Assembly (NCBI GenBank): GCA_964549615.1
Contig: CAZJVP010000051.1
Span: 58,740-122,739, forward strand
Direction: 5' to 3'
Source of the DNA: an uncultured Thermococci archaeon
GTDB taxonomy: Archaea; CAYQAE01; CAYVLA01
Length of the DNA stretch: 64,000 bases
Shown: positions 2,790 through 58,910 of the stretch, piece after piece
Numbering within the stretch: the first letter of the stretch is position 1
Layout of the letters: each line of letters starts with the position of its first letter
The notes under the pieces: model-generated
What the model saw: the letters and a program-made list of their open reading frames with translations, nothing else
Databases searched by the model: none
Told to the model about the DNA's origin: nothing
Position numbers and translations under genes: made by a program

Positions 2790-3749
2790 TTAGGCTAGTG
2801 CTATCAATCCCACCCCGAGGGCCATGATCGCCGCCGCGATGAGCTTCAGGTTGGTTCTCTCCTCCCCCAATATCTCGAAGCCGAACAGGACCGCGAACAT
2901 GATCGACGTCGAGCGAAGCGAGATGACGTATGAGACCTCGACCGTTCGCATGGCAAAGAGGACCAAGAGATACGAGAAGATGCACAGGAAGCCCACCGCG
3001 ATGGCTTGCCTCCAAGATTTCGACGCGCCCATCCGCATCCTCGCAAGTCCGTAGCGTCTGAGGAAGAGCGGTGAGAGGAGCAGGCCGCAGACCGTAAACG
3101 TCAGGTAGAGGTAGACCACGGGGTCGACCAGCGAAACGCCGACCTTGTCTATGGTCTGATAGAAGGATATGCAGAGACCCGTCGCGATCGCTGCTGCGGA
3201 TGCGGGGCTTGCCAACCTGGCAGCCGTTTGCCCGAGAGACAGCCCGCCCTTGGCCGGTTGATGGAAGAGATAGATGGATAGCATTGTGAGCAGAATTCCA
3301 GCCCAGCCGATGCTCGAGGGTCGCTCCCCAAGCAGCATGAGCGCCCAGGTCAGCGTGAGGACAGGCGCCAGCCCCCTGGCCAGAGGGTAGGCGTGGGACA
3401 GATCACCCCGGGAGTAGCTCCTTCCAAGGAGCAAGAAGTAGAAGCAGTATACCGAGCCGGTGCCGAGGATGCACATCCATCCCTGCCAGGGGATATCCGT
3501 GCCGGGCGCGGTCAGGAGGAAGAGAGGAGTGTACAGCAGTATCGCAGCCCAGACATACAGAAATGAGAAGAGTGCTTTGTCTTCGGACTTCTTGAAAAGG
3601 AGGTTCCAGTAGGCATGGAGCAGGGCGGAGACCAAGACGAGGGCCACTGGGAATAGGATCGTACGATCACCGGCGGGTGCAGGTACGAGATACCCGGGGA
3701 TATGAATCTCCTGTCGATCCCCATCGAGAACGCTGATATTCCAGAGCAC
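2790..3749 (-). CDS. EamA/DMT-superfamily transporter (10-TM membrane protein)
   Basis: 319 aa, ~10 hydrophobic helices in two repeated halves, typical drug/metabolite transporter size. Confidence 0.45.
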   Translation of the reverse strand: MLWNISVLDGDRQEIHIPGYLVPAPAGDRTILFPVALVLVSALLHAYWNLLFKKSEDKALFSFLYVWAAILLYTPLFLLTAPGTDIPWQGWMCILGTGSVYCFYFLLLGRSYSRGDLSHAYPLARGLAPVLTLTWALMLLGERPSSIGWAGILLTMLSIYLFHQPAKGGLSLGQTAARLASPASAAAIATGLCISFYQTIDKVGVSLVDPVVYLYLTFTVCGLLLSPLFLRRYGLARMRMGASKSWRQAIAVGFLCIFSYLLVLFAMRTVEVSYVISLRSTSIMFAVLFGFEILGEERTNLKLIAAAIMALGVGLIALA

Positions 3750-3852
3750 AATCTCGAGTTGGGATCATGCGGTGGCGGGTTGATTTTGGTCCCAGTGTCA
3801 GGGGCGAGCGCTCACAAAGCTTTTTGAAAATCCGTCTCCAGTTGAGGTTCGC

Positions 3853-5877
3853 ATGTGGCGCGTCGAGGTCGCAGAGAACCCGGACTGGGGGTACGCCAGG
3901 AATCTCCAACTCGTCCTCAAGACGCATCTTGCGGAGTATTCGTCCTCCGTCTTTTCCGTCCCACTCGAGGCAGGCGGCCTGAGGTACTATGGCGGAAACA
4001 GGGACTATTCATGGCAGGGCTTGATCGTCGGTCCGATCGACGGCGTCCTATACAAGACGCTTGACGGGCTGTTCTACTCAACGGGGTCTCAGCTCGCGGC
4101 GAGGCATGTCTGGTACCAGCCCGGCGAGTTCTCGTACGGATATGAAGATCCGGCCGGACAGGCATTCGTGGTCAGGATCGCTTTGGATGACCTGCAGGGA
4201 CGAATCTTTCTGAGGGCTGCGGCAAACAAGCCCTGCTGGTTCGCCGTCCCGCTGGATCTTAGGCCGGCGGAGAGGTGGACCGAGGCCAGCTACGCGGTCC
4301 GTTGGCTCGAAGGGAGCGTCGTGATCCAGAGCGACGCAGCGCCCGTTACGGTCACGATGCGAGGCTTCAGCGCAAGGCAGGACCTGAACATGTCCCTGAA
4401 CTGGAGGTACAAACTCGGCGACGGGTTCAGGGAGATCAGGGACGGGCTCGTGGCCTTTTCTGAGCACCGACGGCCGATCCATCTGCCCTTTGCGCTCTAC
4501 TGCCCAAATGGGCTTCTGGAGGTTCAGGTTGACGCTGAACCGCGCCTGCCGACAAACCTTCCTCGGGCGGAAAGTCGCGCTGCGGTTCGCCTGGGAACCG
4601 GCAGGGTGGCCCAGGCCTTACGGTTGCGCATCGAGAACCTTGGCACCTTCGGAATCCCCGTCGCCGGAACATGGTTTCCCGAGGCCGGAGCCTGGTGGTT
4701 CAGGAAGCCGTGGATCAGGGACGCGATCGAGGGGCTGAGATGGAACATCAGGACCTACGTAGAGATCCTCGGGCGCTCTGGCCCCGTGGGTTCGCTGGTG
4801 CTCGGGCTGCTGGACCTGCTCGAATCCCGCGGGGGGCTTCCCATCATATACGGCGAGGGGGGATGCTTTTCAAGCGATGCGCCGCCGCTCCTTCTGACCG
4901 TTGCTTGTGAACTGGCCCGTCTAGGTCAAAGCCGGAACCTTGCGCTGAGGGCCGTTGACGTGGCGCGACATGTCTGCGAAAATCTTCTTGCTGGCAAATC
5001 CGTCTCAGGTTCGGTCTTGGCAGACTCCGTCATCTGCTGCCCGGCGAGTTCATCTTGGCTCGATTCCGTCATCTCTCTGGGCGGCATTAGATGGCCCACC
5101 AGGATTCCGCGATCTTGGGCCGCAGAGGGCCTTGATCCGCGCTCAAGCGAGTTCGGGTTGGTCGAGGTCAATGCCCTCTACATCGAGTCGCTTGGCAGGG
5201 TGCTCGAGTGCGCGGCGGAGATGGGCCTCGGTGTGTCGGCCGTACTGGAGCAGGTGGCCGGGGAGCTCGTCCACGGGTTCAAAGCCCGTTTCAGGCGGCA
5301 AGACTCCCTCCCCTTCTTGACGATCGTGCCAAGCCATGGGCTCGCCGATCCCACTCCGGGCTCCCCCGCCCTGGTGAGCCTGGCATGCCTGAAGGACTCG
5401 ATCTATACAAGAAACGAGCTGAGCCGACTTTGGAACCAGGCTAGGACCGATCTGTTGGTCGAAAGAACGCCAATGGTTCTGGGAGGTGGAAGGCTTCCGT
5501 TCGGGGTCTTGGTCAGGGCAGGCGAAAGGCGCCCCTACCTCGGTGATGAGGAGTACCACGGCCCCACCGTCTGGCCAAGGGATACGCCCTATCTCATACG
5601 CCTGCTTGAGGCGACGGGGGGAGATGTCAGAGGCATCCTCCTAAACAATCTTGACCACATGATTGCCGAGGGGGCCTTCGGATACTGCAGCGAGCTGTTT
5701 AGCCTGCCGGTGGGGTGCGCGGCGGGTGGGATGTCGGACAATCCGGTTCCTGTGAAGAACCCGGCCCAGTACTGGAGCCATTGGTGCGACCCCTACCTGG
5801 ACCATCTTCGCGATCTTGGGCTTAGGTCGCTAGGTCGGGAAAAAGCTGTTGAGCGGAACGCAGTTCAGGCCGACTAG
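3853..5877 (+). CDS. Amylo-alpha-1,6-glucosidase / glycogen debranching enzyme-like (GDE_C family)
   Basis: 674 aa; motif EYHGPTVWPRDTPYLIRLLEATG matches GDE_C conserved YHNGxVWPWDN region; sits in glycogen gene cluster. Confidence 0.55.
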   Translation: MWRVEVAENPDWGYARNLQLVLKTHLAEYSSSVFSVPLEAGGLRYYGGNRDYSWQGLIVGPIDGVLYKTLDGLFYSTGSQLAARHVWYQPGEFSYGYEDPAGQAFVVRIALDDLQGRIFLRAAANKPCWFAVPLDLRPAERWTEASYAVRWLEGSVVIQSDAAPVTVTMRGFSARQDLNMSLNWRYKLGDGFREIRDGLVAFSEHRRPIHLPFALYCPNGLLEVQVDAEPRLPTNLPRAESRAAVRLGTGRVAQALRLRIENLGTFGIPVAGTWFPEAGAWWFRKPWIRDAIEGLRWNIRTYVEILGRSGPVGSLVLGLLDLLESRGGLPIIYGEGGCFSSDAPPLLLTVACELARLGQSRNLALRAVDVARHVCENLLAGKSVSGSVLADSVICCPASSSWLDSVISLGGIRWPTRIPRSWAAEGLDPRSSEFGLVEVNALYIESLGRVLECAAEMGLGVSAVLEQVAGELVHGFKARFRRQDSLPFLTIVPSHGLADPTPGSPALVSLACLKDSIYTRNELSRLWNQARTDLLVERTPMVLGGGRLPFGVLVRAGERRPYLGDEEYHGPTVWPRDTPYLIRLLEATGGDVRGILLNNLDHMIAEGAFGYCSELFSLPVGCAAGGMSDNPVPVKNPAQYWSHWCDPYLDHLRDLGLRSLGREKAVERNAVQAD

Positions 5878-42079: not shown

Positions 42080-43381
42080 ATGCTCGTGGAAACTCCAGCG
42101 CAGAGCAGTAACATGCCTGCGCCCTCCGGTCAAGCTGGTGATGAGCCAGTCCACTGGCTTGCCGTCCTTTCCCTTGCATCGTGCGTCATGGGTTCGTCGG
42201 CGGCCACGGCCCTGGAGGACGGACGGATCGGGGTCCTCTACATCGGCTGCATCGCCCGTTCCCGGCCCTTCTGGGACATGAGGCAGGACCCTCTCTTCGC
42301 GCTCAGCTTCGTGCAGGCGACCCTTCGCTCGTCCGGAGCATGGGCCCCTATACAGCAGGTGTCGGGAGGAGGTGAAGTGGCCAGGATGGTGAGGCTGTAC
42401 ATGCCCCGAACCTACTCGCGGCTGACGTCGGGGTTCGATGTCATAGTCCTTTCCAACGCGAATCGATTCATGGTGGGCGTGAGCAACATCGAGATGGTCG
42501 CCCGTGCAGTCAGGGAGGGTGGCCTGGGGCTTTTCATGTCCGGAGGCTGGGAGAGCTTCGGGGGGCACAATCATCCCGACTGGGGAAGCACCTCGGTGGG
42601 CGATCTGCTTCCGACCGTGGATGTTGAGGGCTCCTGGGTGTCGCATCCGCGTGGCGACCTCAAGCTCGTGATCACCGACGAGAAGCACGAGTTCATCAGG
42701 AGCCTTCCCTGGGAGAGGGAGAAGGCGCAGTTCATGTTCGACTTCCACCACAACGTGGTCACAGCCAAAGAGGGTTCCCAGGTGCTTGCCCGGGTACGGG
42801 CTCCGGACTTGGATGATCCGGCCATGGTGAGCTGGGAGCTTGCGGGGGGAAACCGCGTCTTCGCCCTAACCGGCGAAGTCCACACGATGGCGTTAGGCCC
42901 GTGGCCGTACTACCTGGACTTCGGGGCAAACCTGATGATCTACCTTGACGGCCGCCCAGTTCCCCAAGACATCGACCTGGTGCACTCGCTCAGGACGACG
43001 ATGCACGCGGTCGCCGTAAGGAGGTCCCTGCTGATTAGCCTCCTGGAGTTCTGTGACTCCTTCGGCGCTGACACGGGCGGGATCACGGTCAGGACGGACG
43101 AGCTGGACAAGATCGCGGCGCAGGCAAAGCCCCTCTATCTGCAACTGCAGTTCCAAGAAACCCTAGACGCCTACAGGAGCGTCGAGGAGGGCCTGGCGAC
43201 GATCGAACAGGACGCAATGCGGCTGAAGGACAGAACCCTGTTTTGGATCTACATCATCGAATGGGTTGCCGTGACCGGAACCATGATGGTCTGCGGGGTC
43301 CTCCTTTGGTCGATCATGATCCGCCACAGTCTGTACAGAGAAACCCGAACGACAAGGTTGGAGCGCCTGGATCCACCCTGA
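42080..43381 (+). CDS. Paralog C of the 5-member secreted/C-terminally anchored family
   Basis: RIGVLYIGCIARS...DVIVLSNANRF...GLGLFMSGGWESFGG...LKDRTLFWIYIIEWVAVTGTMMVCGVLLWSIMIRHSLYRE. Confidence 0.6.
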   Translation: MLVETPAQSSNMPAPSGQAGDEPVHWLAVLSLASCVMGSSAATALEDGRIGVLYIGCIARSRPFWDMRQDPLFALSFVQATLRSSGAWAPIQQVSGGGEVARMVRLYMPRTYSRLTSGFDVIVLSNANRFMVGVSNIEMVARAVREGGLGLFMSGGWESFGGHNHPDWGSTSVGDLLPTVDVEGSWVSHPRGDLKLVITDEKHEFIRSLPWEREKAQFMFDFHHNVVTAKEGSQVLARVRAPDLDDPAMVSWELAGGNRVFALTGEVHTMALGPWPYYLDFGANLMIYLDGRPVPQDIDLVHSLRTTMHAVAVRRSLLISLLEFCDSFGADTGGITVRTDELDKIAAQAKPLYLQLQFQETLDAYRSVEEGLATIEQDAMRLKDRTLFWIYIIEWVAVTGTMMVCGVLLWSIMIRHSLYRETRTTRLERLDPP

Positions 43382-44721: not shown

Positions 44722-46044
44722 TTGGGAGGTCGGGAGGGGTGGCCGGGCCCGTTGGTGGTGGTGTCGGAAGATTCTTATCCGTTCTGGACCGAAGCGGGGT
44801 GGATGCTGGAGAATCGCCTTCTCCTCATAGCCGTCATCGCTGCGATCGCGGTGGGGCAAGCACGCCAGGGTTTGGCTCTGGAGGACCGCCGGATCGGCGT
44901 CCTGTACGTGAGCGATCCCATCAGGTCACCCGCCTTCACCTTCATGCGCGCCGAGCCCATCTTCTCCCTCACCTTCGTGGCCGCCTCCCTGAGGGGCTTC
45001 GGGGGCTGGGATCTGGACGACGTCCACAGGGCGATACGGCTCTATTTCCCGCGCATGTACCAGGATCTGACAAGCCGATTCGATGTCGTGGTCCTTGACA
45101 ATGCGAACCAGATGGCGATTACGCCTGAGCAGATCGAGCTGTTGGCACGGGGAGTGAGGGAGGCTGGCATAGGATTGCTCATGACGGGTGGCTGGGAAAG
45201 CTTCGGCGGCACGGGGACGGCCCAGCCCTCATGGGGCCCGACCGCGATCGGCGCCCTTCTTCCCGTCCAGTGCGTCGACGGCACATGGGTCGAATCGGGC
45301 AGGCTCGTCATCGACGAGCCGGAGCACGAGTTCGTGGCAAGCATCCCATGGGACCGCAAGGGCCCATTCATGCAGTCCTTCCACCACAACCTGGTCACCG
45401 TCAGGGAGGGGGGACAGTTGCTCGCCCATACCGACCGCAACCGGTATCAACCTGGTGGCGACCACCCGCTTTTCATCACGTGGGAGGTGGAAGGGGCAAG
45501 GGTCTTCGCGTGCACGGGCGAGATAGTCCAGATGGCATCGATCTTCAGCTACGGCGGCACGAACTACGACATCTGGGAGTACTACGGGGATTTCATAAGC
45601 AACCTGATGATCTACCTCGACAAGCGCCCGGTGCCCCAGGATGTCGATCTCGTCCATGCCGTGAGGTCGACGGCATTCCAAAGCAGGACCAGGGTCTCCC
45701 TGCTCTTGAGCCTCGTTGAGTTCGTCGAGTCCTTCGGGGCGAACGGCCAGGGGGTGATGCGCTCAGTCGACGAGCTGAACGGGGTCGTCGCCCAGGCCGA
45801 CGGTGCGTACCTTGACCTCAACTTCGAGGAGGTTCTGGAAATCTATCGCCGGATCGGAACGATGCTCGATGACATCGAAAAGCAGGCGCTTGAGCTCAAG
45901 GACCGAACGCTTCTCTGGGTCTACCTCGTCGAGTGGCTCGCGGTGACCGGAACCGCTCTGCTCGCCGGCTTCATCTTGTGGACGACCATGGTCCGGCGGA
46001 GATTCTACAAGGAGATGAAGGTCACTAGAATCGCGGCCCTCTAG
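44722..46044 (+). CDS. Paralog D of the 5-member family
   Basis: RIGVLYVSDPIRS...DVVVLDNANQM...GIGLLMTGGWESFGG...LKDRTLLWVYLVEWLAVTGTALLAGFILWTTMVRRRFYKE. Confidence 0.6.
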   Translation: MGGREGWPGPLVVVSEDSYPFWTEAGWMLENRLLLIAVIAAIAVGQARQGLALEDRRIGVLYVSDPIRSPAFTFMRAEPIFSLTFVAASLRGFGGWDLDDVHRAIRLYFPRMYQDLTSRFDVVVLDNANQMAITPEQIELLARGVREAGIGLLMTGGWESFGGTGTAQPSWGPTAIGALLPVQCVDGTWVESGRLVIDEPEHEFVASIPWDRKGPFMQSFHHNLVTVREGGQLLAHTDRNRYQPGGDHPLFITWEVEGARVFACTGEIVQMASIFSYGGTNYDIWEYYGDFISNLMIYLDKRPVPQDVDLVHAVRSTAFQSRTRVSLLLSLVEFVESFGANGQGVMRSVDELNGVVAQADGAYLDLNFEEVLEIYRRIGTMLDDIEKQALELKDRTLLWVYLVEWLAVTGTALLAGFILWTTMVRRRFYKEMKVTRIAAL

Positions 46045-47818: not shown

Positions 47819-49159
47819 TCAGGTCTTCTGTGCATGTAGCTTGGTTGTGTGGACCTCTCTCCATAGCCTGCGGCGCACCATAACCGACCACAGCACGAAG
47901 CCCGTCACCACTGCCGTTGCGGTCACCGTCAACCATTCGATCACATATACCCAGAGGAGGGCGCGGTCCTTGAGTTCCATGGCGTCTTTCTCTATCTCGC
48001 CAAGCGCTTCGTGGGCCTGCTCGTAGGCCTCAACCACATCCTCGAAGCGAAGCTCAAGATAGGCGGGCAGGGCGTCGAGCGCGATGCGGTTTGCTTCGTC
48101 CAACCTCATATTGATCGAGTTCGTGTTTGCGCCGAAGGAGTCGCAGAATTCCAGAAGGCCGACCAAGAGCGACTTCCGGGTGCCGAACTCGAACATGCTC
48201 TTCCTCACTCGATGGACAAGCTCCACATCCTGGGGCACGGGCCGCCGATCGAGGTAGATCATGAGGTTGGCACCGAAGTCCAGGGCGTATTCCCAGGGGT
48301 CGCCAGGAGTGCACATGGTGTGCAACTGGTAGGGCTCGGAACTGGGCCCGAAGATCTCGCCCGTGATCGAGAAGGTTCGGCCCCCGCCCGGCAGATCCCA
48401 GGTGACGAAGCCCGGGTCATCCTTGTACCCGGGTCCCTCGACGTGTGCCAGCACCAAGGATCCCGGCTTCGCCTTCACCAGGTTGTGGTGGTAGTTGTAC
48501 ATGAAAGGCTGGGTCCTGTCCCATGGCAGGCTGCTCATGAACTCGTGATCGGGCATGTCGATGACGAGTGTGTGGACGTTGGCCGGGCGGTGGATGTAGA
48601 TGTTGCCCGCATCCTCGGTGGGAAGCAGCTGGCCTATGGCCGAGTCGCCCCAGGGCGGCCTCCCGAACGCGCCGCCGAAGCTCTCCCACCCACCCACCAT
48701 GACAAGTCCCATGCCGGCCTCCCGCACGCCACGCGCCAGCATCTCGATGTGCGTCGGTGGGATCGCTTCCCTGTTTGCGTTGGACAGGATGATGACATCG
48801 AAGCGGGATGTCAGGTCCGAAAAGGACCGTGGCATATACAGCCTCACGATCCTGTAGATCTCGCCCTCACCCTTGGTGGCCTGGATGGGCGCCAGGGCGG
48901 CCCAGTCGCGGAGCGTTGCCTGGACGAAGTTGATCGAGAAGAGGGGATCGGACCTCATCCACCAGATCGGCGTGGAACGGGCAAGGCAGCCGGCGTAAAG
49001 CACCCCTATTCTTCCGTCCTGAAGGGCCGTCGTCGTTGAGAGAGCCGCTTGAAGGGCAAGGAGCACGGCAGCCGCTAGGGCTGGGCGGCAGCCAAGCTTG
49101 TGAGCGAAGCCTGCCTGCAGCGACACAGGGGTCGTGCGGCTGACGGCGGCCATGCTCAC
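47819..49159 (-). CDS. Paralog E of the 5-member family
   Basis: RIGVLYAGCLARS...DVIILSNANRE...GMGLVMVGGWESFGG...LKDRALLWVYVIEWLTVTATAVVTGFVLWSVMVRRRLWRE. Confidence 0.6.
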   Translation of the reverse strand: MSMAAVSRTTPVSLQAGFAHKLGCRPALAAAVLLALQAALSTTTALQDGRIGVLYAGCLARSTPIWWMRSDPLFSINFVQATLRDWAALAPIQATKGEGEIYRIVRLYMPRSFSDLTSRFDVIILSNANREAIPPTHIEMLARGVREAGMGLVMVGGWESFGGAFGRPPWGDSAIGQLLPTEDAGNIYIHRPANVHTLVIDMPDHEFMSSLPWDRTQPFMYNYHHNLVKAKPGSLVLAHVEGPGYKDDPGFVTWDLPGGGRTFSITGEIFGPSSEPYQLHTMCTPGDPWEYALDFGANLMIYLDRRPVPQDVELVHRVRKSMFEFGTRKSLLVGLLEFCDSFGANTNSINMRLDEANRIALDALPAYLELRFEDVVEAYEQAHEALGEIEKDAMELKDRALLWVYVIEWLTVTATAVVTGFVLWSVMVRRRLWREVHTTKLHAQKT

Positions 49160-50875: not shown

Positions 50876-52381
50876 CTATTTCTTCAGAATTGCGGGCTGC
50901 GTGGAAAGCGTGAAGGGCTTGCCGTCTCTCTCGAAGTCCGCCTCCCCGAACACGGCAACGTTCTTGTCGGCGGGCCGCTCGATGGTCACCCGAAGCACGC
51001 CCTCTTCGCTCGCCATTTCCACCGGCTCCCATCTCTCCGGGCGGAAGTCCATGCTGTCGGCCTTGGCAACCCAGGCCCGGCCCCTCTTTGCCTCTTTGGC
51101 CTTGATCGTCAGCGTTAGCGTATCTCCCCTGGCCTTCCGCATCCACGAAATCTCTGGCATGCTGTCGCCTCCCGCCACGGTGCGGAAGAAGGCGCTCAAG
51201 GTGTTGAGAACCCTCGTCATGCCCGGCTCAAGGCTGTGGCCGGCGTTGGGCACGTAAAGCACATACTTGGGCCCGACTAGGCCATCCCAATATAGGTTCA
51301 GGGCATCCGTGGTCCAGTAACGGTCATTTGAGCCGAGGATGATGAGTTTCGGGACGGCGATAATCTTCCTGTAGGAGTACGGATCGACCGCCTGCCAAAG
51401 CGCCTTTCCCCGCCGGCTACTGAAACTCTCCGTGAGCCCCTTCGAGGAGTAGTCCGAGATCTGCTCGCTGTAGCTCCCCCACATCTCCAACTGGTGCTTC
51501 ATCTGTTTGGGCATGTTCAGCACGTCGATCACCGCGGGCGCGATGGCCTTTACTCGCCTACCCCCGTCCACCGCCGCCGTCAGCCACGTTGTCCAACCCC
51601 TCTTCGACGCGCCGAAGACCACGAAGCCGCATATCTTCTCCTGCCACTCCTGTTTTGCATGCTCTTGCAGCGCATCCATCGCTCTGAGTGCGCTCTTCAC
51701 CATCGGGAAGAGCAGCGGCCAGGTCGGGTCGCCGTCCTTCAAGTACTGCTGGAAAGTGTGCGAAATGATCTCATCCTCAATCATCCCGCCGAAAAGCGGC
51801 TGGTTTGGCACGTGGCTGAGCATCGCGACCGGCGCCCCCACCGAACGCGCTAGCCCCATCGCGAGAACATCTTCTTTCCGCTCCTCGCCCGGCTTCGGTT
51901 CTCCTGATCCGCCGCCGATCAGCAGTCCCATCCAACCCGGGAAACTCACCTGGGCCGGTCTCGCTATCCGCAACAGGTGCTTCCAGGCCATGCCTCGCCA
52001 CATCTGGGAGGTCAAGACGATGTCGCTCAGCGAGCCGCCCGCAACCTCCTTCGATGGTCCCTTCTTCCAATCGAAGGTGGGGTCCGGGGCATTCGCGTAA
52101 TCAAACAGCATCTCCGCAGGCGCCCCGGCAAATCGGGACCCGGCCGTCGTCGTTAGCAGGCTGCTGAGGGCTAGGGTGAACGGAGAATTCAAAGTGGTCC
52201 TTGGTCCGGCCAGCTTTTCGTGCCCCTTGGACAGACGTGGGCAGGAATGCTTGGCGGGCGAGACGTGGCTATGGCAGAAGGTCACCTTGCAGAGCCTGTA
52301 ACGGACCGGCTTGAGGAGCAGCTTGCCGCACTCGAAACGCCCGTGTCCAGTGTTTTCGTCAGGGGTTGCCCTCCGTTCCAT
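50876..52381 (-). CDS. PhoPQ-activated pathogenicity-related (PqaA-like) alpha/beta-hydrolase family protein
   Basis: GFVVFGASKRGWTTW (GxSxG-like), overall resemblance to the PqaA family; true start probably internal. Confidence 0.4.
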   Translation of the reverse strand: MERRATPDENTGHGRFECGKLLLKPVRYRLCKVTFCHSHVSPAKHSCPRLSKGHEKLAGPRTTLNSPFTLALSSLLTTTAGSRFAGAPAEMLFDYANAPDPTFDWKKGPSKEVAGGSLSDIVLTSQMWRGMAWKHLLRIARPAQVSFPGWMGLLIGGGSGEPKPGEERKEDVLAMGLARSVGAPVAMLSHVPNQPLFGGMIEDEIISHTFQQYLKDGDPTWPLLFPMVKSALRAMDALQEHAKQEWQEKICGFVVFGASKRGWTTWLTAAVDGGRRVKAIAPAVIDVLNMPKQMKHQLEMWGSYSEQISDYSSKGLTESFSSRRGKALWQAVDPYSYRKIIAVPKLIILGSNDRYWTTDALNLYWDGLVGPKYVLYVPNAGHSLEPGMTRVLNTLSAFFRTVAGGDSMPEISWMRKARGDTLTLTIKAKEAKRGRAWVAKADSMDFRPERWEPVEMASEEGVLRVTIERPADKNVAVFGEADFERDGKPFTLSTQPAILKK

Positions 52382-53546: not shown

Positions 53547-54785
53547 CTAACGGAGGGAGAGAATCAGGATTATGATCGCAATGCTGATGAAGGCGACGCT
53601 CATGACCCTGCCGAGGACCATGCCGATCACTATCACCGCCCCGGCCGTCGCGCCCATATTGGTGAATGCCGCAACAAGCAGGACCTTGGTCAGCCTGTTG
53701 GTCCAGAACGTGCTCACCTTCCTTATCTCCCTCAGGCCGTGGAAGTCCTTGACTTGGGGAGGGTTGACGAGGATCTGCACGTAGCCCGATATCCAACCCG
53801 TGGCGATTAGGGGATTGAGGATGCCGAATGGGGCAGCGATGAAGGCTGCGGCGATCGCTAGGGGATGTGCTAGGGCCGCGAGGGCGCCAAGGGCAGACAG
53901 GCCACCTCCGATCAAGAGGAGCTTCTCCATGATCTCCAGGAACTTGGGCCAACCTTGTGAGTAGATAGTCCAGATGAAGATGGCAAGGAAGGCGACCGGA
54001 ATCAGATATCCCGCGAGCTTCAGCGAGAAGACGCTGCTTGGGATCTTCTCGAGCTCGGCGAGGTCCGCTTCCCGCCCGCGCTGCAGGTTTTCCACAAGGC
54101 CGTTGAGGTGCCCGGCGCCCACCACGGCGACGATGGTCCGGCCCGGACTCGCCTCGGCGAGCTGGCGCAACCTGCCTGCGATGTAGAGGTCCCTCTCATC
54201 CACCAAAACCTCCTTGGCCTTGGGAGCCAGCTTGCCCAGCTCCTCCATCATCTCGGTGATAATGTCCTGCCTCTTGAGCATCTCGATGTCGATCTGCTGC
54301 GCATCTGAGGCCCCCAAGAGGCCGTAGACGAGCTCCCTGAAGATCCTGAACTTCTCGCGAAGGCTCATCTTGTTCCAAGCTCGCCTCAAGGTGACGGCGA
54401 TCTTTCGGTCAACGAGGGCTATCTGCGCCCCGATCTCTTTGGCCGCGCCTATTGCCTCCAGCATCTCGGATCCGGGCTCAACCCCGAACTCCTCTCCGAT
54501 GCTCCTTTGCAGCATCGCAAGGAATGATTGCCCGAGGAAGAAGTAGGGTTGCTCGCCGCGGAGAAGCTTCGTCAAGGGGGTCTGTTCCCAGCTCTTCTTG
54601 TCCAAGAGCACCTTGTACCGCGGTTCGCACAGCTCCACTGCCACGATCTGCGGTTTCTCTTCGAGTATGATCCTCCTGACCTCCTGCACGCTCTGCCTGG
54701 AGATGTGTGCGGTGCCGAGTAGGATCACATTGCTCTCGCCGACCGATATCTTTCGGACGTTGGAGTGTGCCACCGCGTCGTCCAC
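53547..54785 (-). CDS. TraB/GumN-family protein with C-terminal TM segments
   Basis: NVILLGTAHISRQSVQEV...IVAVELCEPR... typical TraB N-terminal region. Confidence 0.6.
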   Translation of the reverse strand: MDDAVAHSNVRKISVGESNVILLGTAHISRQSVQEVRRIILEEKPQIVAVELCEPRYKVLLDKKSWEQTPLTKLLRGEQPYFFLGQSFLAMLQRSIGEEFGVEPGSEMLEAIGAAKEIGAQIALVDRKIAVTLRRAWNKMSLREKFRIFRELVYGLLGASDAQQIDIEMLKRQDIITEMMEELGKLAPKAKEVLVDERDLYIAGRLRQLAEASPGRTIVAVVGAGHLNGLVENLQRGREADLAELEKIPSSVFSLKLAGYLIPVAFLAIFIWTIYSQGWPKFLEIMEKLLLIGGGLSALGALAALAHPLAIAAAFIAAPFGILNPLIATGWISGYVQILVNPPQVKDFHGLREIRKVSTFWTNRLTKVLLVAAFTNMGATAGAVIVIGMVLGRVMSVAFISIAIIILILSLR

Positions 54786-54845
54786 GAAGGCTCGCCTGAC
54801 CGGGATGGCTTGCGGCTTGGACCCGGTTAAATCTTTTCGGACGTC

Positions 54846-56057
54846 TTGGGGTGTGCACCTCGGTTGCTCCGCGCCAGGCGGCGGCGGAAGGCCCGAGCAT
54901 TGCTAAAAGAATTATATCCCAAGGCGCTTCCGAGAGGCGTGGACGCGGTCCTTCTTGCGGCGGGAAAGGGGACGAGGCTGAGGCCGCTGACGGTTAATCG
55001 TCCCAAGCCGCTTGTCCCCGTCGCGAACAGACCGGTCATGGAGTACCAGCTGAGACTCCTGGAGAATGCCGGGTTCGACAGGGTGATCATCCCGGTGGGA
55101 TACCTGGCAGACCAGATCGTAAGCTATGTAGAATCCTTCGAAAGCGGGCTTGAGTTCGAGTTCTCGTTTGATAACATCCCGCTTGGGACGGCGGGGTCTG
55201 TGGCGAAACTGCGGGATCGCCTGAACGAGACCTTTCTCGTCATTAGCGGCGATCTATTGGTTGACCTCGATGTCGGCCAGCTGATGGGATTCCACGCACA
55301 GACCAGAGCCTCGGTGACCATTGCGCTGACCCGAGTGGAGGATCCCACCCAGTACGGGATCGCGCTCCTTGAGGGCTCGCGCATATCCAGCTTCGCGGAG
55401 AAGCCGGAGCCATCGAAGGTCTTCAGCAACCTGGTGAACGCCGGCATCTACGTAATGGAGCCGGAGGTCTTGGACGAGGTCCCGCCGAACGCCCAGTTCG
55501 ATTTCTCGCTCGACCTCTTTCCCTCGATCATCGATCGCCGGTATCTGGCCGGCCATCTCTTGGGCGGCTACTGGAACGACATAGGAAGGCCAAGCAGCTA
55601 CCTACAGGCCAACGGGGACGCCCTCTTGGGCAGGTTCCCCATGGAAAAGTTCGTTCGGGATCCGATGGTGCCAAGCAAGGTGACCCCCGTCATGGGAAGG
55701 AGCTCCACACTGGGCGATGTCGACATATCGGGCCCGGTCCTGCTCGGCGAGAACTGCCTCGTAGAGGGAGGTTCGGCACTGCGGAGCTTCGTCGTGCTGG
55801 GCAACGATGTCTCGGTGGGAAAGGGTTGCGTCTTGGACTCCGTGGTGGTGCACGAAGGCACCACGATCGGATCCTCGGCCGACGTGAGGCACTGCATAGT
55901 CGGCCGCGAGTGTGTGATATCGGACGATGTCGAGCTCGCGGAAGGAACGGTGATCGGCGACCATACGAGGATCGGCCGCGGCTGCCGGATAGGGGCGAAC
56001 ATGAAGATCTGGGCCGGGAGCACCCTCGGCGCCAACACGGTCATCACGCCTGACTGA
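54846..56057 (+). CDS. Sugar-1-phosphate nucleotidyltransferase with C-terminal left-handed beta-helix (GlmU/Glc-1-P-NTase-like)
   Basis: AVLLAAGKGTRLRPLTVNRPKPLVPVANRPVMEY; C-terminal hexapeptide repeats; start may be later than 54846. Confidence 0.6.
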   Translation: MGCAPRLLRARRRRKARALLKELYPKALPRGVDAVLLAAGKGTRLRPLTVNRPKPLVPVANRPVMEYQLRLLENAGFDRVIIPVGYLADQIVSYVESFESGLEFEFSFDNIPLGTAGSVAKLRDRLNETFLVISGDLLVDLDVGQLMGFHAQTRASVTIALTRVEDPTQYGIALLEGSRISSFAEKPEPSKVFSNLVNAGIYVMEPEVLDEVPPNAQFDFSLDLFPSIIDRRYLAGHLLGGYWNDIGRPSSYLQANGDALLGRFPMEKFVRDPMVPSKVTPVMGRSSTLGDVDISGPVLLGENCLVEGGSALRSFVVLGNDVSVGKGCVLDSVVVHEGTTIGSSADVRHCIVGRECVISDDVELAEGTVIGDHTRIGRGCRIGANMKIWAGSTLGANTVITPD

Positions 56058-56232
56058 GGGGTGTTGGGCTTGTACGCTGTCTGGACGGTCGATTCTTGTG
56101 GCCTTCGGGAAAGCACCTCGAGTCACCTCGAGTGCGATGATCCCGCAGTGGCGCGCAGCCTAGAGGGGGCCCGAAACCCTTATCTGTCGAACGGGTCGAG
56201 CCCCGCCAAGGATAATTCAGCACAGTGATTGG

Positions 56233-57291
56233 ATGACGGAGTCGGGCCTTCATGTCGAGAGGGGCTGTATTGTGGCTGAAGCCCACGCTCTGAATGCCTG
56301 CACGGCTGCGGCACTCGGCTCGGGTTTCGCCCAGGTTATCGGCCCCGGCAACGTCGTTGTGACGGGGAGAGACGGGAAGGGCTTCTCAAGGCTAATCAAG
56401 AGGGCTATGACCTGTGGCATTATGGAGAACGGCGTGGAGGTCATGGACACGAGGCTCGTTCCCCGATCCGTAACGCGCTACTGCGTCAGCGACACCTCCT
56501 CGGATTACGGAGTGTATGTGGGCTTTCACTGGCTCAGGCCGGGTAGCCTAGTCTTTTCCTTCTTCGATGCCGCGGGGGCCATCCTCGGGCATGACATGCT
56601 TGAGCGCATACTGGGCAAGATGGGCTGTTTGGAGAAGGGGACATCGGCGCGCGAGGTGGGCGATATCGTCTTCTTTTTCGACGCTGGCCCGAGGTACGAG
56701 GAAGAGATCCTCAGGGCTGTCGACACAAACGCGATATCCTCTGCGCGGCCGAAGGTGGTTGTCGACTGCTCCAACGGGGCCATCTCGGTCACCCTCCCGG
56801 AGATACTGCGAAAGTTGGGTTGCCAGGTTGTATCGTACAACGACGATCCGGCCGGGTACCTTTCTGGCATGCCGGTCTTGGCGGACGAATCCCTCATGGC
56901 GGATTTCGCCGGAAAGGTCAAGGACGGCGGGGCGGATCTGGGAATCGCGCTGGACCCGTTCGGCGAGTGCGCGAGGTTCGCGGACGATGAGGGCGTCGTG
57001 CTTTCACAAAGGGATCTCGGGCTCTTGCTGATGGCGAAGGCCGGGGTGAGGGTGATGGGCGTCTGGCACGGGCTTGGTGGGGCATTCCCATCCAGCATGG
57101 ACGTCAGGATTCTGAAGGAAGATGAGGGGCAGCTCCCCAGGGGGCTTGACGCCGCTTTGGGCCAAGACCATGCCTGCTACCTCGGCAGCCGCAGGAGGAG
57201 GTGGTGGGACGCATCGCCCATGGCGCTCAAGTTGCTCGAGATCGTGTCCGAAGGGGACAAGATTTCTCGGCTGCGGCGGGGGCTGGCCTAG
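56233..57291 (+). CDS. Phosphohexomutase-family paralog with degenerate catalytic motifs (putative pseudo-enzyme), lacking domain IV
   Basis: Domain II/III homology (KVVVDCSNGAISVTLPEILRKLGCQV; GADLGIALDPFGECARF where DGDGDR expected); no TASHNP Ser loop, no RxSGTEP. Confidence 0.45.
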   Translation: MTESGLHVERGCIVAEAHALNACTAAALGSGFAQVIGPGNVVVTGRDGKGFSRLIKRAMTCGIMENGVEVMDTRLVPRSVTRYCVSDTSSDYGVYVGFHWLRPGSLVFSFFDAAGAILGHDMLERILGKMGCLEKGTSAREVGDIVFFFDAGPRYEEEILRAVDTNAISSARPKVVVDCSNGAISVTLPEILRKLGCQVVSYNDDPAGYLSGMPVLADESLMADFAGKVKDGGADLGIALDPFGECARFADDEGVVLSQRDLGLLLMAKAGVRVMGVWHGLGGAFPSSMDVRILKEDEGQLPRGLDAALGQDHACYLGSRRRRWWDASPMALKLLEIVSEGDKISRLRRGLA

Positions 57292-58910
57292 GCGTGGTTC
57301 AGCTGAAGATAGTACCTGTAGCCCTCAACTAGCGCCGTCTTGCTCGCCTCGAGTATGTTCTCCGACACCCCGACGGTCGCCCACCGCTTCTTGTCGGCCT
57401 CGAACTCAACGAAGACCTCAACGGAGGATGCCGTGCCCTCCATGTTTATGACCGTGACCTTGAAGTTCGTGAGGTTGACCTTTGCGCTCTCCGGAAAGAA
57501 GGGCAGGAGAGCTTTCCTCAGGGCATTGTCCTGGGCATTGACCGGGCCGGCCCCCTCTGCAATGGTGTGAATGATCTGGTTCCCGACCTTGACCTTGACG
57601 GTGGCCTCGGCTATCCTCCTACCGTTTGAGTCGACGGATGACAGGGTCCTCCACTCAGTTACGTCGAAGGTCTTGCGCAGGACCCCCAGCTCCTCAGCCA
57701 TCAGGAGGTAAACGGTCGCGTCGGCGTTGAGCAGGTGGTATCCCTGGGCCTCGAGCCGCTTGATTCTCTGCAGGATCCTCGAGGTGCGCTTGTCGCCCTT
57801 ATCCAGTTTGAAGCCGAACTCCCTAGCCTTGGACACCACCGCGGCTCTCCCCGACAGCTCGGACACGGACAGGACGCGGGTGTTCCCCACAAGCTCCGGT
57901 TCTATATGTTCGTAGGACCGGGGATGCTTGTTAACTGCATCCGCGTGCACTCCGCCCTTGTGGCTGAACGCCAGCGAACCCACGTAGGGCTGGTGCGGGT
58001 TCGGCCTCGCATTGATCAACTCGTAGAGGTATTCGGAGGCCTGCTTGAGCTTGGTCAGCCTTTCCTCCCTCTTTCTGTCCCTCATGACGGTTGCGATGCC
58101 GAGCTTGTGTTCTAGGTTCGGCAGGACGGCGCAGAGGTCGGCGTTTCCACATCGTTCCCCGATGCCGTTGAGCGTTCCCTGGACATGTTCGACGCCGGCG
58201 AGAACAGCGGCCACGGTGTTGGCGACGGCGCATCCGGAGTCGTTATGCCCATGGAAGCCGAGCTTCGTGCTCACCTCCTCGCGCGCCCTTTCGGTGATGG
58301 ACTGGATCTCGTTTGGTAGGCTTCCGCCGTTCGAGTCGCACAGCACTATGACCGAGGCATCCGCATCTTCGGCGGCGCGCAGGGTCCGCAGGGCATATGC
58401 GGGGTCGTCCTTGAAGCCGTCGTAGAAATGCTCGGCATCGAATATGACTTCCAGGCCGTGGCTCCGGAGATATTGGATCGAGTCCTGAATCATCTCTATG
58501 TTTCTCTCCTCTGTGGTGCGAAGGACATCCGTCACATGGAAGCGCCAACTCTTCCCGAATATTGCGGCGTACCTGACCCCGGAGTCCACGATGCTTGCGA
58601 GGTTTGGATCGCTGTCCTTTCGGCTGTCTTTCCTCATCGTCGCGCCGAAGGCGGTGAGCTTGGCAGAGAGCGAGTAGTCCCGGATCCTCTTAAAGTACTC
58701 AATGTCCTTGGGGTTGGAGGCGGGCCAGCCGCCTTCGATGAAATGAACCCCGAGCTCATCCAGCTTCAGGGTGAGGTCGATCTTGTCCTGAAGCGAGAAG
58801 GTGATTCCGGTCGTCTGTGAACCGTCCCTGAGGGTGGTGTCGTAGACATCCACCTGAGATGGAAGATGCTTGCTCATGTCTATCGCTTTCTGGAGGGAAT
58901 GCCCAGGCAA
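57288..58910 (-). CDS. 2-isopropylmalate/(R)-citramalate synthase family (LeuA/CimA)
   Basis: VDVYDTTLRDGSQ HMGL-like barrel signature plus LeuA-type C-terminal regulatory domain; 540 aa. Confidence 0.65.
   Translation of the reverse strand: MPGHSLQKAIDMSKHLPSQVDVYDTTLRDGSQTTGITFSLQDKIDLTLKLDELGVHFIEGGWPASNPKDIEYFKRIRDYSLSAKLTAFGATMRKDSRKDSDPNLASIVDSGVRYAAIFGKSWRFHVTDVLRTTEERNIEMIQDSIQYLRSHGLEVIFDAEHFYDGFKDDPAYALRTLRAAEDADASVIVLCDSNGGSLPNEIQSITERAREEVSTKLGFHGHNDSGCAVANTVAAVLAGVEHVQGTLNGIGERCGNADLCAVLPNLEHKLGIATVMRDRKREERLTKLKQASEYLYELINARPNPHQPYVGSLAFSHKGGVHADAVNKHPRSYEHIEPELVGNTRVLSVSELSGRAAVVSKAREFGFKLDKGDKRTSRILQRIKRLEAQGYHLLNADATVYLLMAEELGVLRKTFDVTEWRTLSSVDSNGRRIAEATVKVKVGNQIIHTIAEGAGPVNAQDNALRKALLPFFPESAKVNLTNFKVTVINMEGTASSVEVFVEFEADKKRWATVGVSENILEASKTALVEGYRYYLQLNHA

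Follow-up and report, generated by a model that had tools for sequence, protein, structure and literature searches.

A phosphohexomutase homologue lacking catalytic loops and domain IV, encoded beside a sugar nucleotidyltransferase in an uncultured archaeon

The gene pair and its surroundings

The window, which is the whole 64-kb stretch of archaeal DNA analyzed here, contains two neighboring genes on the same strand, with a sugar nucleotidyltransferase gene (ORF A) upstream of a phosphohexomutase-like gene (ORF B). The mechanical call for ORF A spans 54846-56057 (+) and starts at a TTG at 54846, as was accepted in the first-pass annotation. The start is more likely the GTG at 54939, which gives an NDP-sugar pyrophosphorylase of 372 aa (54939..56057, +), since all the orthologues are 372 aa long and begin with MDAVLLA. 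An A/T-rich BRE/TATA-like element, AAAAGAATTATAT, was read about 25 nt 5′ of this GTG (54906..54918, +). It lies inside the ORF that starts at TTG 54846 and, therefore, also favors the shorter gene. This element is a putative promoter, in which case the transferase mRNA would be nearly leaderless.

A spacer of 175 nt (56058..56232, +) separates ORF A from ORF B. It contains a block, GCCCGAAACCCTTATCTGTCGAACGGGTCGAG (56169-56200, +), that is kept in the closest orthologous locus according to an intergenic alignment, and a GTGAT Shine-Dalgarno-like motif directly 5′ of the ORF B ATG; the block and the GTGAT may serve as promoter or ribosome-binding site. An Rfam scan of 54700-57500 gave no match. 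ORF B (56233..57291, +) encodes a protein of 352 aa with phosphohexomutase domains I-III, as identified with Pfam, PDB, AlphaFold, and Foldseek. On the opposite strand, a convergent citramalate/isopropylmalate-synthase-like gene (57288..58910, −; Pfam HMGL-like, HCS_D2, and LeuA_dimer) has a stop that overlaps the stop of ORF B. The same arrangement was found in loci L001-L005. This gene is outside the ORF A/ORF B system and marks its boundary.

ORF A matches Pfam NTP_transferase (1e-43) and, toward its C-terminus, hexapeptide families (LbH_EIF2B, Hexapep, Hexapep_GlmU, and GMPPB_C), which define a left-handed beta-helix (LbH) domain at 55722..56054 (+) that appears in the AlphaFold model as a series of short beta strands. 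The protein has the G-x-G-T-R-x-x-P-x-T-x3-P-K signature of transferases, in the form G-K-G-T-R-L-R-P-L-T-x3-P-K at residues 9-23 (54963..55007, +), as well as the acidic metal ligands and the EKP motif. Across 61 sequences comprising ORF A, its orthologues, and the fusion proteins described below, G9, R13, P16, P22, K23, D105, E154-K155-P156, N167, W212, and D214 are invariant. Judged by these residues, ORF A is catalytically intact. The nearest solved structures are 8x7s, a UTP-Glc-1-P uridylyltransferase, and GMPPB-type enzymes. ORF A scored below the cutoffs for both archaeal GlmU (TIGR03992; 193 bits vs. 292) and the Rv3264c-type mannose-1-P guanylyltransferase (NF052502; 228 bits vs. 440), and it is closest to the GMPPB/CugP type. 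The expectation of a glmM-glmU-type pair at this locus was, therefore, not borne out; instead, the two genes correspond to a widespread transferase-LbH-mutase-like module that is split here and has no domain IV.

Fold and catalytic features of ORF B

ORF B matched Pfam PGM_PMM_I (1.7e-11) and PGM_PMM_II (9.3e-16), both above their gathering scores, and, among solved structures, aligned best with the archaeal PMM/PGM entries 1wqa and 9du5 with a sequence E of about 1e-22 at an identity of only 22-24%. Its AlphaFold model is confident (pLDDT 92) and superposes on domains I-III of 9du5 and 1wqa with a TM of 0.82-0.85 (Foldseek, E 1.8e-26) and on the domain-IV-less GlmM of 7olh and 7ojs with a TM of 0.76-0.79. 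By homology and by fold, ORF B is a member of the alpha-D-phosphohexomutase superfamily. Recognizable domain II and III blocks had been noted before. Domain II was supported by Pfam, domain III was recognizable only at the level of the fold with no Pfam match, and domain I proved to be recognizable too. Structural alignment to the same four entries places a shortened domain III at 56995..57288 (+), and this domain includes a family-specific RRWWDA motif (57190-57210, +) in which W324, W325, and D326 are invariant among orthologues.

The loops that carry out catalysis were altered or missing. Alignments placed the sequence VGFHWLRPG (GFHW; residues 96-104; 56518..56544, +) where canonical enzymes have the phosphoserine loop (T/S)ASHNPxxx, so that the position of the catalytic Ser is His in ORF B and H, D, Y, or S across its orthologues. 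The metal-binding loop reads DPFGEC (residues 241-246; 56953..56970, +) and aligns exactly with the DGDGDR/DGDADR (DxDxDR) of active enzymes; all that is left of it is the first Asp and a single Glu, and the family consensus is D-P-C-G-E-S. In domain III, the sugar-binding loop GEx(S/N)G(H/G) is replaced by GQDHACYL (family consensus GEDxxCYL). The His and Lys that flank the catalytic Ser and two of the three metal-binding Asp residues of active mutases are also gone. Finally, the protein ends directly after domain III at residue 352, without domain IV and its R-x-S-x-T-(E)-P loop, whereas the R-x-S-x-T phosphate-binding loop was present in all 25 canonical mutases sampled. A domain IV hidden beyond the stop can be ruled out since the overlapping stop of the convergent gene leaves no space for it.

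ORF B thus falls short of the enzyme family in each respect considered, including the four domains, the four loops, and the score against its best NCBIfam model, Arch_GlmM (TIGR03990; 106 bits, below the cutoff of 439). Alignments with canonical mutases were also checked for Ser and metal-binding Asp residues that had merely shifted, and they showed no conserved nucleophile, no complete metal loop, and no phosphate-binding domain. These results agree with the first-pass annotation, which had described a catalytically dead, truncated mutase homologue paired with a sugar nucleotidyltransferase and had listed the replacement of DGDGDR by DPFGEC, the missing phosphoserine loop, and the missing domain IV. 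We found no canonical mutase in the 64-kb window or in the flanks of the orthologous loci.

Fused and split relatives

An exhaustive profile search returned the ORF B family as one 50%-identity representative (588 bits), and the next matches, at 147 bits or less, were mostly proteins of 810-850 aa that aligned at about residues 385-740. These fusions of about 830 aa carry NTP_transferase, LbH, and PGM_PMM I-III. Outside its own clade, ORF B is most closely related to them and to stand-alone modules encoded next to transferases of this kind. The N-terminal half of one fusion (P0025) is 40% identical to ORF A over the full length of ORF A. CDD has a PGM-like “MPG1_transferase” subfamily. The fusions are named [quoted passage not shown] by JGI and “sugar phosphate nucleotidyltransferase” by NCBI. 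In the literature, we found no description of a transferase-mutase fusion or of a prokaryotic phosphohexomutase pseudoenzyme.

We aligned 133 relatives of ORF B (50%-identity cluster representatives), 56 of which are transferase fusions, and conducted a motif census. The motif S-R-L-I-K-R-A (FSRLIKRA) lies in domain I of ORF B after the GRD loop (residues 52-58; 56386..56406, +). The first Arg of this SR(M/L)xKRA motif was found in 50/55 fusions, 38/40 degenerate stand-alone proteins, and 4/4 members of the ORF B family, compared to 2/25 canonical mutases; the second Arg gave the same counts in the first three groups and 1/25 in canonical mutases. The mutase-like halves of the fusions rarely have SHNP (1/56), DxDxDR (3/56), or R-x-S-x-T (at most 9/55, compared to 25/25 in canonical mutases), and most of the fusions and stand-alone relatives sampled have none of the three phosphate-handling loops. 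A Glu occupies the fifth position of the metal loop in 38 of the 56, as in ORF B, and a Ser is kept at the catalytic position in 39. The fusions share with ORF B the SRxxKRA motif, a D..G-E metal loop, and the lack of SHNP. In the window, by contrast, the module is divided into two separate genes, domain IV is absent, the Ser is not conserved, and domain III is shortened and has the RRWWDA motif. The ORF B family HMM scored 186-208 bits against profiles of the degenerate modules and 156 bits against the canonical-mutase profile, a rough comparison since the “stand-alone degenerate” profile also catches transferase ORFs and some alignment contamination is present. With its SR(M/L)xKRA motif and its position beside an NTP_transferase+LbH protein, ORF B belongs, on sequence grounds, to an extensive clade in which a mutase-like module is either fused to a GMPPB/CugP-type pyrophosphorylase or encoded directly after one.

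Other split transferase/mutase-like pairs were found at L010 and in Methanothermobacter (L009), Thermococcus (L008), and P. furiosus (L012). In the Thermococcales, the mutase-like gene encodes 234-237 aa, and its product is named “phosphomannomutase-related protein.” This mutase homologue is truncated, has degenerate loops and domains I-II only, compared to domains I-III in ORF B, and shares with ORF B the segment GRDGxxxSRxxKRA. It has orthologues in P. furiosus and P. horikoshii, is 71-93% identical across genera, and is encoded directly after a 361-aa NDP-sugar synthase that is the closest outgroup of ORF A (45% identity). The 236-aa relative in T. kodakarensis, BAD85593.1, which is very likely TK1404, matched the ORF B family with an hhalign probability of 97.6% at 26% identity and has no adjacent transferase. 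Among the four T. kodakarensis COG1109 products, PGM/PMM activity was seen only in TK1108, and the likely TK1404 relative is reported to be without it (PMC11940775). In a neighbor-joining tree, the ORF B family grouped with the Thermococcales proteins in only 16/60 bootstrap replicates, and the tree did not separate the Thermococcales proteins, the fusions, and the stand-alone degenerate forms as candidate sisters of ORF B.

Retention and possible role of ORF B

The first-pass annotation had offered two explanations for ORF B, a pseudo-enzyme that may act as a regulator or scaffold and a recent pseudogene. A decaying, functionless mutase gene could account for the loss of all the catalytic motifs and of domain IV, and the metal loop in the window departs even from the family consensus (DPFGEC compared to DPCGES). 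Against this, the gene has an uninterrupted reading frame, and the same losses recur in all of the orthologues, which form 16 protein clusters with 47-100% identity and lengths of 339-358 aa. The family alignment has 72 invariant columns, family-specific motifs among them, and the confident model also argues for a maintained protein. The dN/dS of ORF B is about 0.18 (NG86, least saturated pair, dS about 1.0), whereas the transferase and the flanking synthase gave 0.11 and 0.10, respectively; dS was near saturation in most pairs, also with YN00, and thus a single pair is really informative. Synteny and a purine-rich motif 5′ of the start codon are conserved, and the transferase gene lies immediately upstream of the ORF B homologue in six independent loci (50-71% identity). 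The orthologues are not assembly duplicates of one population, as shown by identities of 47-72%. A scan of genome contigs found the family in two species representatives, each carrying the label Candidatus Hadarchaeota. A recent pseudogene is, therefore, extremely improbable, and the pseudo-enzyme is the more likely of the two options, with ORF B held by purifying selection. Another explanation is that ORF B remains an enzyme, be it a mutase with non-canonical residues or a protein with a new sugar-phosphate or NDP-sugar activity in the vestigial cleft. The invariant positions include numerous charged residues and several Cys (R46, D47, K49, R53, K56, R57, C23, C61, C179, and C197, and further D241, E245, D312, and D326), and the first Asp and the Glu of the metal loop are among them. 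However, the position of the nucleophile and its vicinity have no conserved Ser or Thr, the flanking His and Lys and two of the three metal-binding Asp are lost, and domain IV, with the loop that every canonical sequence has, is absent. The superfamily has changed specificity before, since TK1777 is a phosphopentomutase (PMC11641776), whereas the likely TK1404 relative is reported to have no PGM/PMM activity (PMC11940775). Taken together, we consider a remaining enzymatic activity unlikely.

If ORF B is neither a relic nor an enzyme, it could act with the transferase or apart from it. In the latter case, it would be a protein-binding regulator or phospho-acceptor elsewhere in the cell, comparable to GlmM with CdaA. 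The similarity of the model to the domain-IV-less GlmM of the CdaA complexes (7olh and 7ojs) is in line with such a role, as are the absence of a neighboring transferase from the two-domain relative in T. kodakarensis, the listing of TK1404 as Tyr-phosphorylated (PMC5007285), and the conserved block upstream of ORF B, which may give it its own promoter. However, the transferase is immediately 5′ in all six loci of the family and immediately upstream also in P. furiosus, Thermococcus sp., Methanothermobacter, and L010, and dozens of 50%-identity representatives have both in a single polypeptide. A role independent of the transferase is, thus, the less expected outcome, although it deserves more weight than a retained activity. 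We lean toward ORF B being a non-catalytic partner of the adjacent transferase, whether as a scaffold, a regulator, or a ligand sensor, since the natural fusions give Rosetta-stone support for a partnership between ORF A and ORF B. A concatenated ORF A-ORF B AlphaFold model had a pTM of 0.67, with low confidence in domain III and no PAE. The persistence of the T. kodakarensis relative without an adjacent transferase suggests that the partnership may not be obligatory.

As a partner, ORF B would be a functional, expressed descendant of a phosphohexomutase that is no longer able to act as one. It has kept the three alpha/beta/alpha domains and lost the nucleophile, most of the metal ligands, the sugar loop, and domain IV; in the lineage of the window, the module is a separate gene that has additionally shed domain IV. 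ORF B could serve as an oligomerization scaffold of the transferase, or it could be a ligand-sensing or regulatory subunit that works through the vestigial cleft and the conserved basic patch. Since a close relative is present in the genetically tractable Thermococcales, the idea of a partner is directly testable. The label also matters. Automatic annotation calls proteins of the ORF B type phosphomannomutases or phospho-sugar mutases, and the organism would then be assigned, in error, a step in the synthesis of sugar nucleotides.

A wider and more tentative reading, which we would not yet favor, is that all of the SR(M/L)xKRA mutase-like modules that accompany GMPPB/CugP-type NDP-sugar pyrophosphorylases, whether fused or adjacent, are non-mutases and make up an unrecognized regulatory or scaffold domain, derived from the preceding pathway enzyme, in Archaea and Bacteria. 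Within it, domains may have been shed stepwise, with four in the fusions, three in the window family, and two in the TK1404-like proteins of the Thermococcales, a series that points to domains I-II as the bearers of the retained function. Given the Ser kept in 39/56 fusions, some phospho-chemistry lost in the window family may persist in the wider clade. If the reading is true, many database entries for [quoted passage not shown] are mis-annotated, and the window protein is a naturally occurring minimal form that reveals which domains bear the retained function.

GlmM uses domains I-III to bind CdaA, a c-di-AMP cyclase, which it inhibits. The GlmM-CdaA complexes of Firmicutes (7olh, 7ojs, and 9g69) are, therefore, a precedent for a phosphohexomutase scaffold in protein-protein regulation, and GlmM without domain IV is sufficient. 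Unlike ORF B, GlmM is still an active enzyme, and its partner is a diadenylate cyclase, which was not seen in the 64-kb window. Archaeal phosphohexomutases (P. horikoshii PMM/PGM, 1wqa; T. kodakarensis PGM TK1108, 9du5) share the fold of domains I-III with ORF B, which is without their TASHNP, DxDxDR, and GEx(S/N)G(H/G) loops and their domain IV. PGM5 (aciculin), a catalytically inactive phosphoglucomutase paralogue of vertebrates (PMC7761743), is like ORF B a member of the superfamily retained as a non-enzyme, and its retention indicates that an inactive paralogue can persist for a structural or binding role. In contrast to ORF B, PGM5 is eukaryotic, has the full four domains, reportedly keeps substrate binding, and is not linked to any nucleotidyltransferase. 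Non-catalytic partners are also found with the transferase class of ORF A, in human GMPPA-GMPPB (7d72) and in a plant mannose-1-P guanylyltransferase with an “ADP-glucose pyrophosphorylase family protein” (8yre). These partners are paralogues of the transferase itself, whereas ORF B, as a candidate partner, derives from the mutase that precedes it in the pathway. The comparisons hint at a former pathway enzyme that was kept on as the non-catalytic companion of the next one, and this would be a route to a pseudoenzyme partner distinct from the paralogue-of-self in GMPPA/GMPPB.

The transferase gene and the adjoining spacer

ORF A and ORF B are on the same strand and together cover the whole feature. 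ORF A was mechanically called at 54846-56057 (+) as a 403-aa protein with a TTG start. The true gene is most likely 54939-56057, because its orthologues are, without exception, 372 aa long with the N-terminus MDAVLLA, a GTG is present at the position of their start (54939), and a BRE/TATA-like element, AAAAGAATTATAT, lies at 54906-54918. The first 31 codons of the mechanical call (54846-54938) are thus probably non-coding. The element is about 25 nt upstream of the GTG and, therefore, the mRNA would be leaderless or near-leaderless. In Pfam, ORF A has an NTP_transferase match (1e-43) and, after it, matches to hexapeptide/left-handed beta-helix (LbH) models. It is presumably active as an enzyme since it retains every residue invariant across 61 homologues (G9, R13, K23, D105, E154-K155-P156 and D214). 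Among solved structures, it is closest to a UTP-glucose-1-phosphate uridylyltransferase (8x7s) and to GMPPB-type enzymes, and it scored below the cutoffs of the curated family models for archaeal GlmU and Rv3264c-type guanylyltransferase.

In the spacer, a 32-nt block, GCCCGAAACCCTTATCTGTCGAACGGGTCGAG (56169-56200), is almost identical in L002, the closest orthologous locus (~3170-3205), while the remaining spacer has diverged. This block, which had no match in Rfam, may serve ORF B as a promoter of its own or as a regulatory site. Several ORF B orthologues have a purine-rich GGxGAT-like motif upstream of the start codon. The spacer also holds a perfect tandem duplication of the 10-mer CACCTCGAGT (56114-56133), which is not conserved in L002.

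Elsewhere in the window, three paralogous ORFs of 430-450 aa with weak GATase1_like (PF07090) matches lie within 7 kb (42080-43381, 44722-46044 and 47819-49159). A fourth GATase1_like gene adjoins the synthase gene in L002 (6070-7362). A 501-aa ORF at 50876-52381 (-) strongly matches PhoPQ_related (PF10142, 337 bits), a family named from a bacterial pathogenicity-related protein and found here in an archaeal context.

Fold, catalytic loops and conservation of ORF B

ORF B (56233-57291, +) encodes 352 aa with Pfam PGM_PMM_I and PGM_PMM_II. The solved structures that it matches best are 1wqa and 9du5, both archaeal PMM/PGM enzymes (E ~1e-22), and it scored 106 bits against the archaeal GlmM model, whose cutoff is 439. 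An AlphaFold model from a 22-sequence alignment (pLDDT 92, pTM 0.91) superposes on phosphohexomutase domains I-III over ~350 columns (TM 0.82-0.85), as well as on the domain-IV-less GlmM construct of CdaA complexes. The catalytic loops of active enzymes are replaced: VGFHWLRPG stands at the phosphoserine loop in place of (T/S)ASHNP, DPFGEC (bases 56953-56970) at the metal loop in place of DGDGDR/DGDADR, and GQDHACYL at the sugar-binding loop in place of GEx(S/N)G(H/G). The protein ends directly after domain III. Its stop codon overlaps that of a convergent citramalate/isopropylmalate-synthase-like gene (57288-58910) and, therefore, no domain IV is hidden downstream. The phosphohexomutase mechanism depends on a nucleophilic phosphoserine, on binding of a divalent metal and on the domain-IV phosphate clamp; for this reason, ORF B cannot be a mutase by the superfamily's established mechanism. 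The alignments, fold and stop position thus bear out the first-pass annotation, which described a truncated mutase homolog with degenerate loops, and support its reading as a pseudo-enzyme. No canonical mutase was found in the 64-kb window or in the flanks of the orthologous loci.

The first-pass annotation also offered a recent pseudogene as an option, which the comparative data on the orthologues exclude. A search of 5.8 billion proteins found 16 clusters of homologues (47-100% identity), all 339-358 aa long and all with Pfam domains I and II only; one is named Theionarchaea archaeon. The family is also present in two GTDB species representatives labelled Candidatus Hadarchaeota archaeon. 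It has 72 invariant columns, including the family-specific VVVTGRDGKGFSRL.KR, DPCGES and RRWWDA. The position of the catalytic Ser varies among orthologues (H/D/Y/S), so our alignment check for shifted catalytic residues found no conserved substitute nucleophile. dN/dS was 0.18 between the window and L002, the least saturated pair (dS ~1.0), compared with 0.11 for the transferase and 0.10 for the flanking synthase; more distant pairs, which are saturated, gave 0.15-0.26. The order transferase, mutase-like gene, convergent synthase is kept in six loci, often with TruA and TraB upstream. The database start of the L002 orthologue (3254-4273; GTG, 339 aa) looks miscalled; an ATG ~40 nt upstream lines up with the start of ORF B, and beginning there gives back the conserved N-terminus.

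Fused and split relatives

When the family profile was run exhaustively against 1.84 billion representatives, the whole family fell into one 50%-identity representative, which scored 588 bits. The clade is narrow, as no other match exceeded 147 bits. The next-best matches were mostly proteins of 810-850 aa, matched at residues ~385-740, which are fusions of NTP_transferase, LbH and PGM_PMM I-III from Thermoprotei, Helarchaeota, Actinomycetota, Bacillota and others. Full-length ORF A shares 40% identity with the N-terminal half of one such fusion. ORF A and ORF B together therefore correspond to a fusion divided between LbH and domain I and lacking domain IV.

Degeneracy extends to the fusions. 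SHNP is present in 1/56 and DxDxDR in 3/56, and these loops typically read R-x-S-P-x-D and D-x-(G/N)-G-E-(R/K). The domain-IV R-x-S-x-T clamp, found in 25/25 canonical mutases, is essentially lost (R/K in 8/55, S in 9/55, T in 4/55). An x-S-R-(M/L)-x-K-R-A motif is common to the fusions, degenerate stand-alone forms and the window family and is nearly absent from canonical mutases; its first Arg is present in 50/55, 38/40, 4/4 and 2/25, respectively. In a rough comparison, window-family members scored 186-208 bits against degenerate-module profiles and 156 bits against the canonical profile. In 39 of the 56 fusions, a Ser is retained precisely at the catalytic position within the new R-x-S-P-x-D context, with the flanking His and Asn, metal loop and phosphate clamp lost; one possibility is that this Ser is a regulatory phosphosite. 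No description of the fusion family or of a prokaryotic phosphohexomutase pseudoenzyme was found in the literature searched, which was incomplete.

Other split pairs exist. Locus L010 has a 390-aa transferase followed by a 472-aa degenerate mutase-like form. Methanothermobacter has a 385-aa transferase followed by a 436-aa four-domain form without SHNP. In M. thermautotrophicus (L009, 4136-8951), these two genes (the latter with VSRSPL) lie in an apparent operon between trehalose-phosphatase-like and GT20 (trehalose-6-P-synthase-like) genes, neighbours which hint that the transferase of this lineage supplies NDP-glucose for trehalose synthesis. In Thermococcales, a 361-aa NDP-sugar synthase, the closest outgroup of ORF A (45% identity), precedes a 234-237-aa two-domain form, whose copies in Thermococcus, Pyrococcus and Palaeococcus share 71-93% identity. 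The T. kodakarensis copy, BAD85593.1 (236 aa, "phosphomannomutase-related protein"), directly follows the PEPCK and alpha-glucan phosphorylase genes (L011, KOD1 AP006878.1 1223695-1232405). The transferase is missing beside it and precedes the homologue in P. furiosus (L012) and Thermococcus sp. (L008). From gene order and accession arithmetic, BAD85593.1 is very likely TK1404, which a review table lists as detected with anti-phosphotyrosine antibody (PMC5007285). Published work confines PGM/PMM activity among the four COG1109 products of T. kodakarensis to TK1108 and describes TK1777 as a phosphopentomutase (PMC11940775, PMC11641776).

In neighbour-joining bootstraps, the window family was monophyletic in 55/60 and the Thermococcales proteins in 60/60, and the two grouped together in only 16/60; the bootstraps do not settle the direction between fusion and split either. 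Mutase-like modules that are degenerate and linked to a transferase are widespread and poorly characterised, and by sequence comparison ORF B is a variant of them specific to its lineage, split from the transferase and with three domains. Its main value is that it completes the comparative series and exposes an annotation error.

Possible role of ORF B

ORF B is most likely a non-catalytic partner of ORF A, as we infer from the recurrent fusion, the strict adjacency and a well-folded scaffold without any of the catalytic loops. It could act as a scaffold or as a subunit with a regulatory or ligand-sensing function. The surfaces that might carry such a function are the vestigial cleft (D241, E245, D312, Y316, W324, W325 and D326) and the conserved, basic SRxxKR helix. 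An AlphaFold model of concatenated ORF A-ORF B, with the natural fusions as paired alignment, gave pLDDT 86.7 and pTM 0.67, without PAE and with domain III poorly modelled.

A role independent of the transferase would fit the T. kodakarensis arrangement, where the two-domain gene has no transferase neighbour, and the possible separate promoter for ORF B, but the widespread pairing with, and fusion to, the transferase speak against it. Residual or novel enzymatic activity could be read from the many conserved charged and Cys residues, but is improbable, being without positive support. The non-catalytic partnership has precedents in known systems. PGM5 is an inactive protein of the same superfamily as ORF B (PMC7761743), GlmM regulates CdaA via domains I-III (7olh, 7ojs), and GMPPB-type transferases are paired with inactive partners (7d72, 8yre), as proposed here for ORF A and ORF B.
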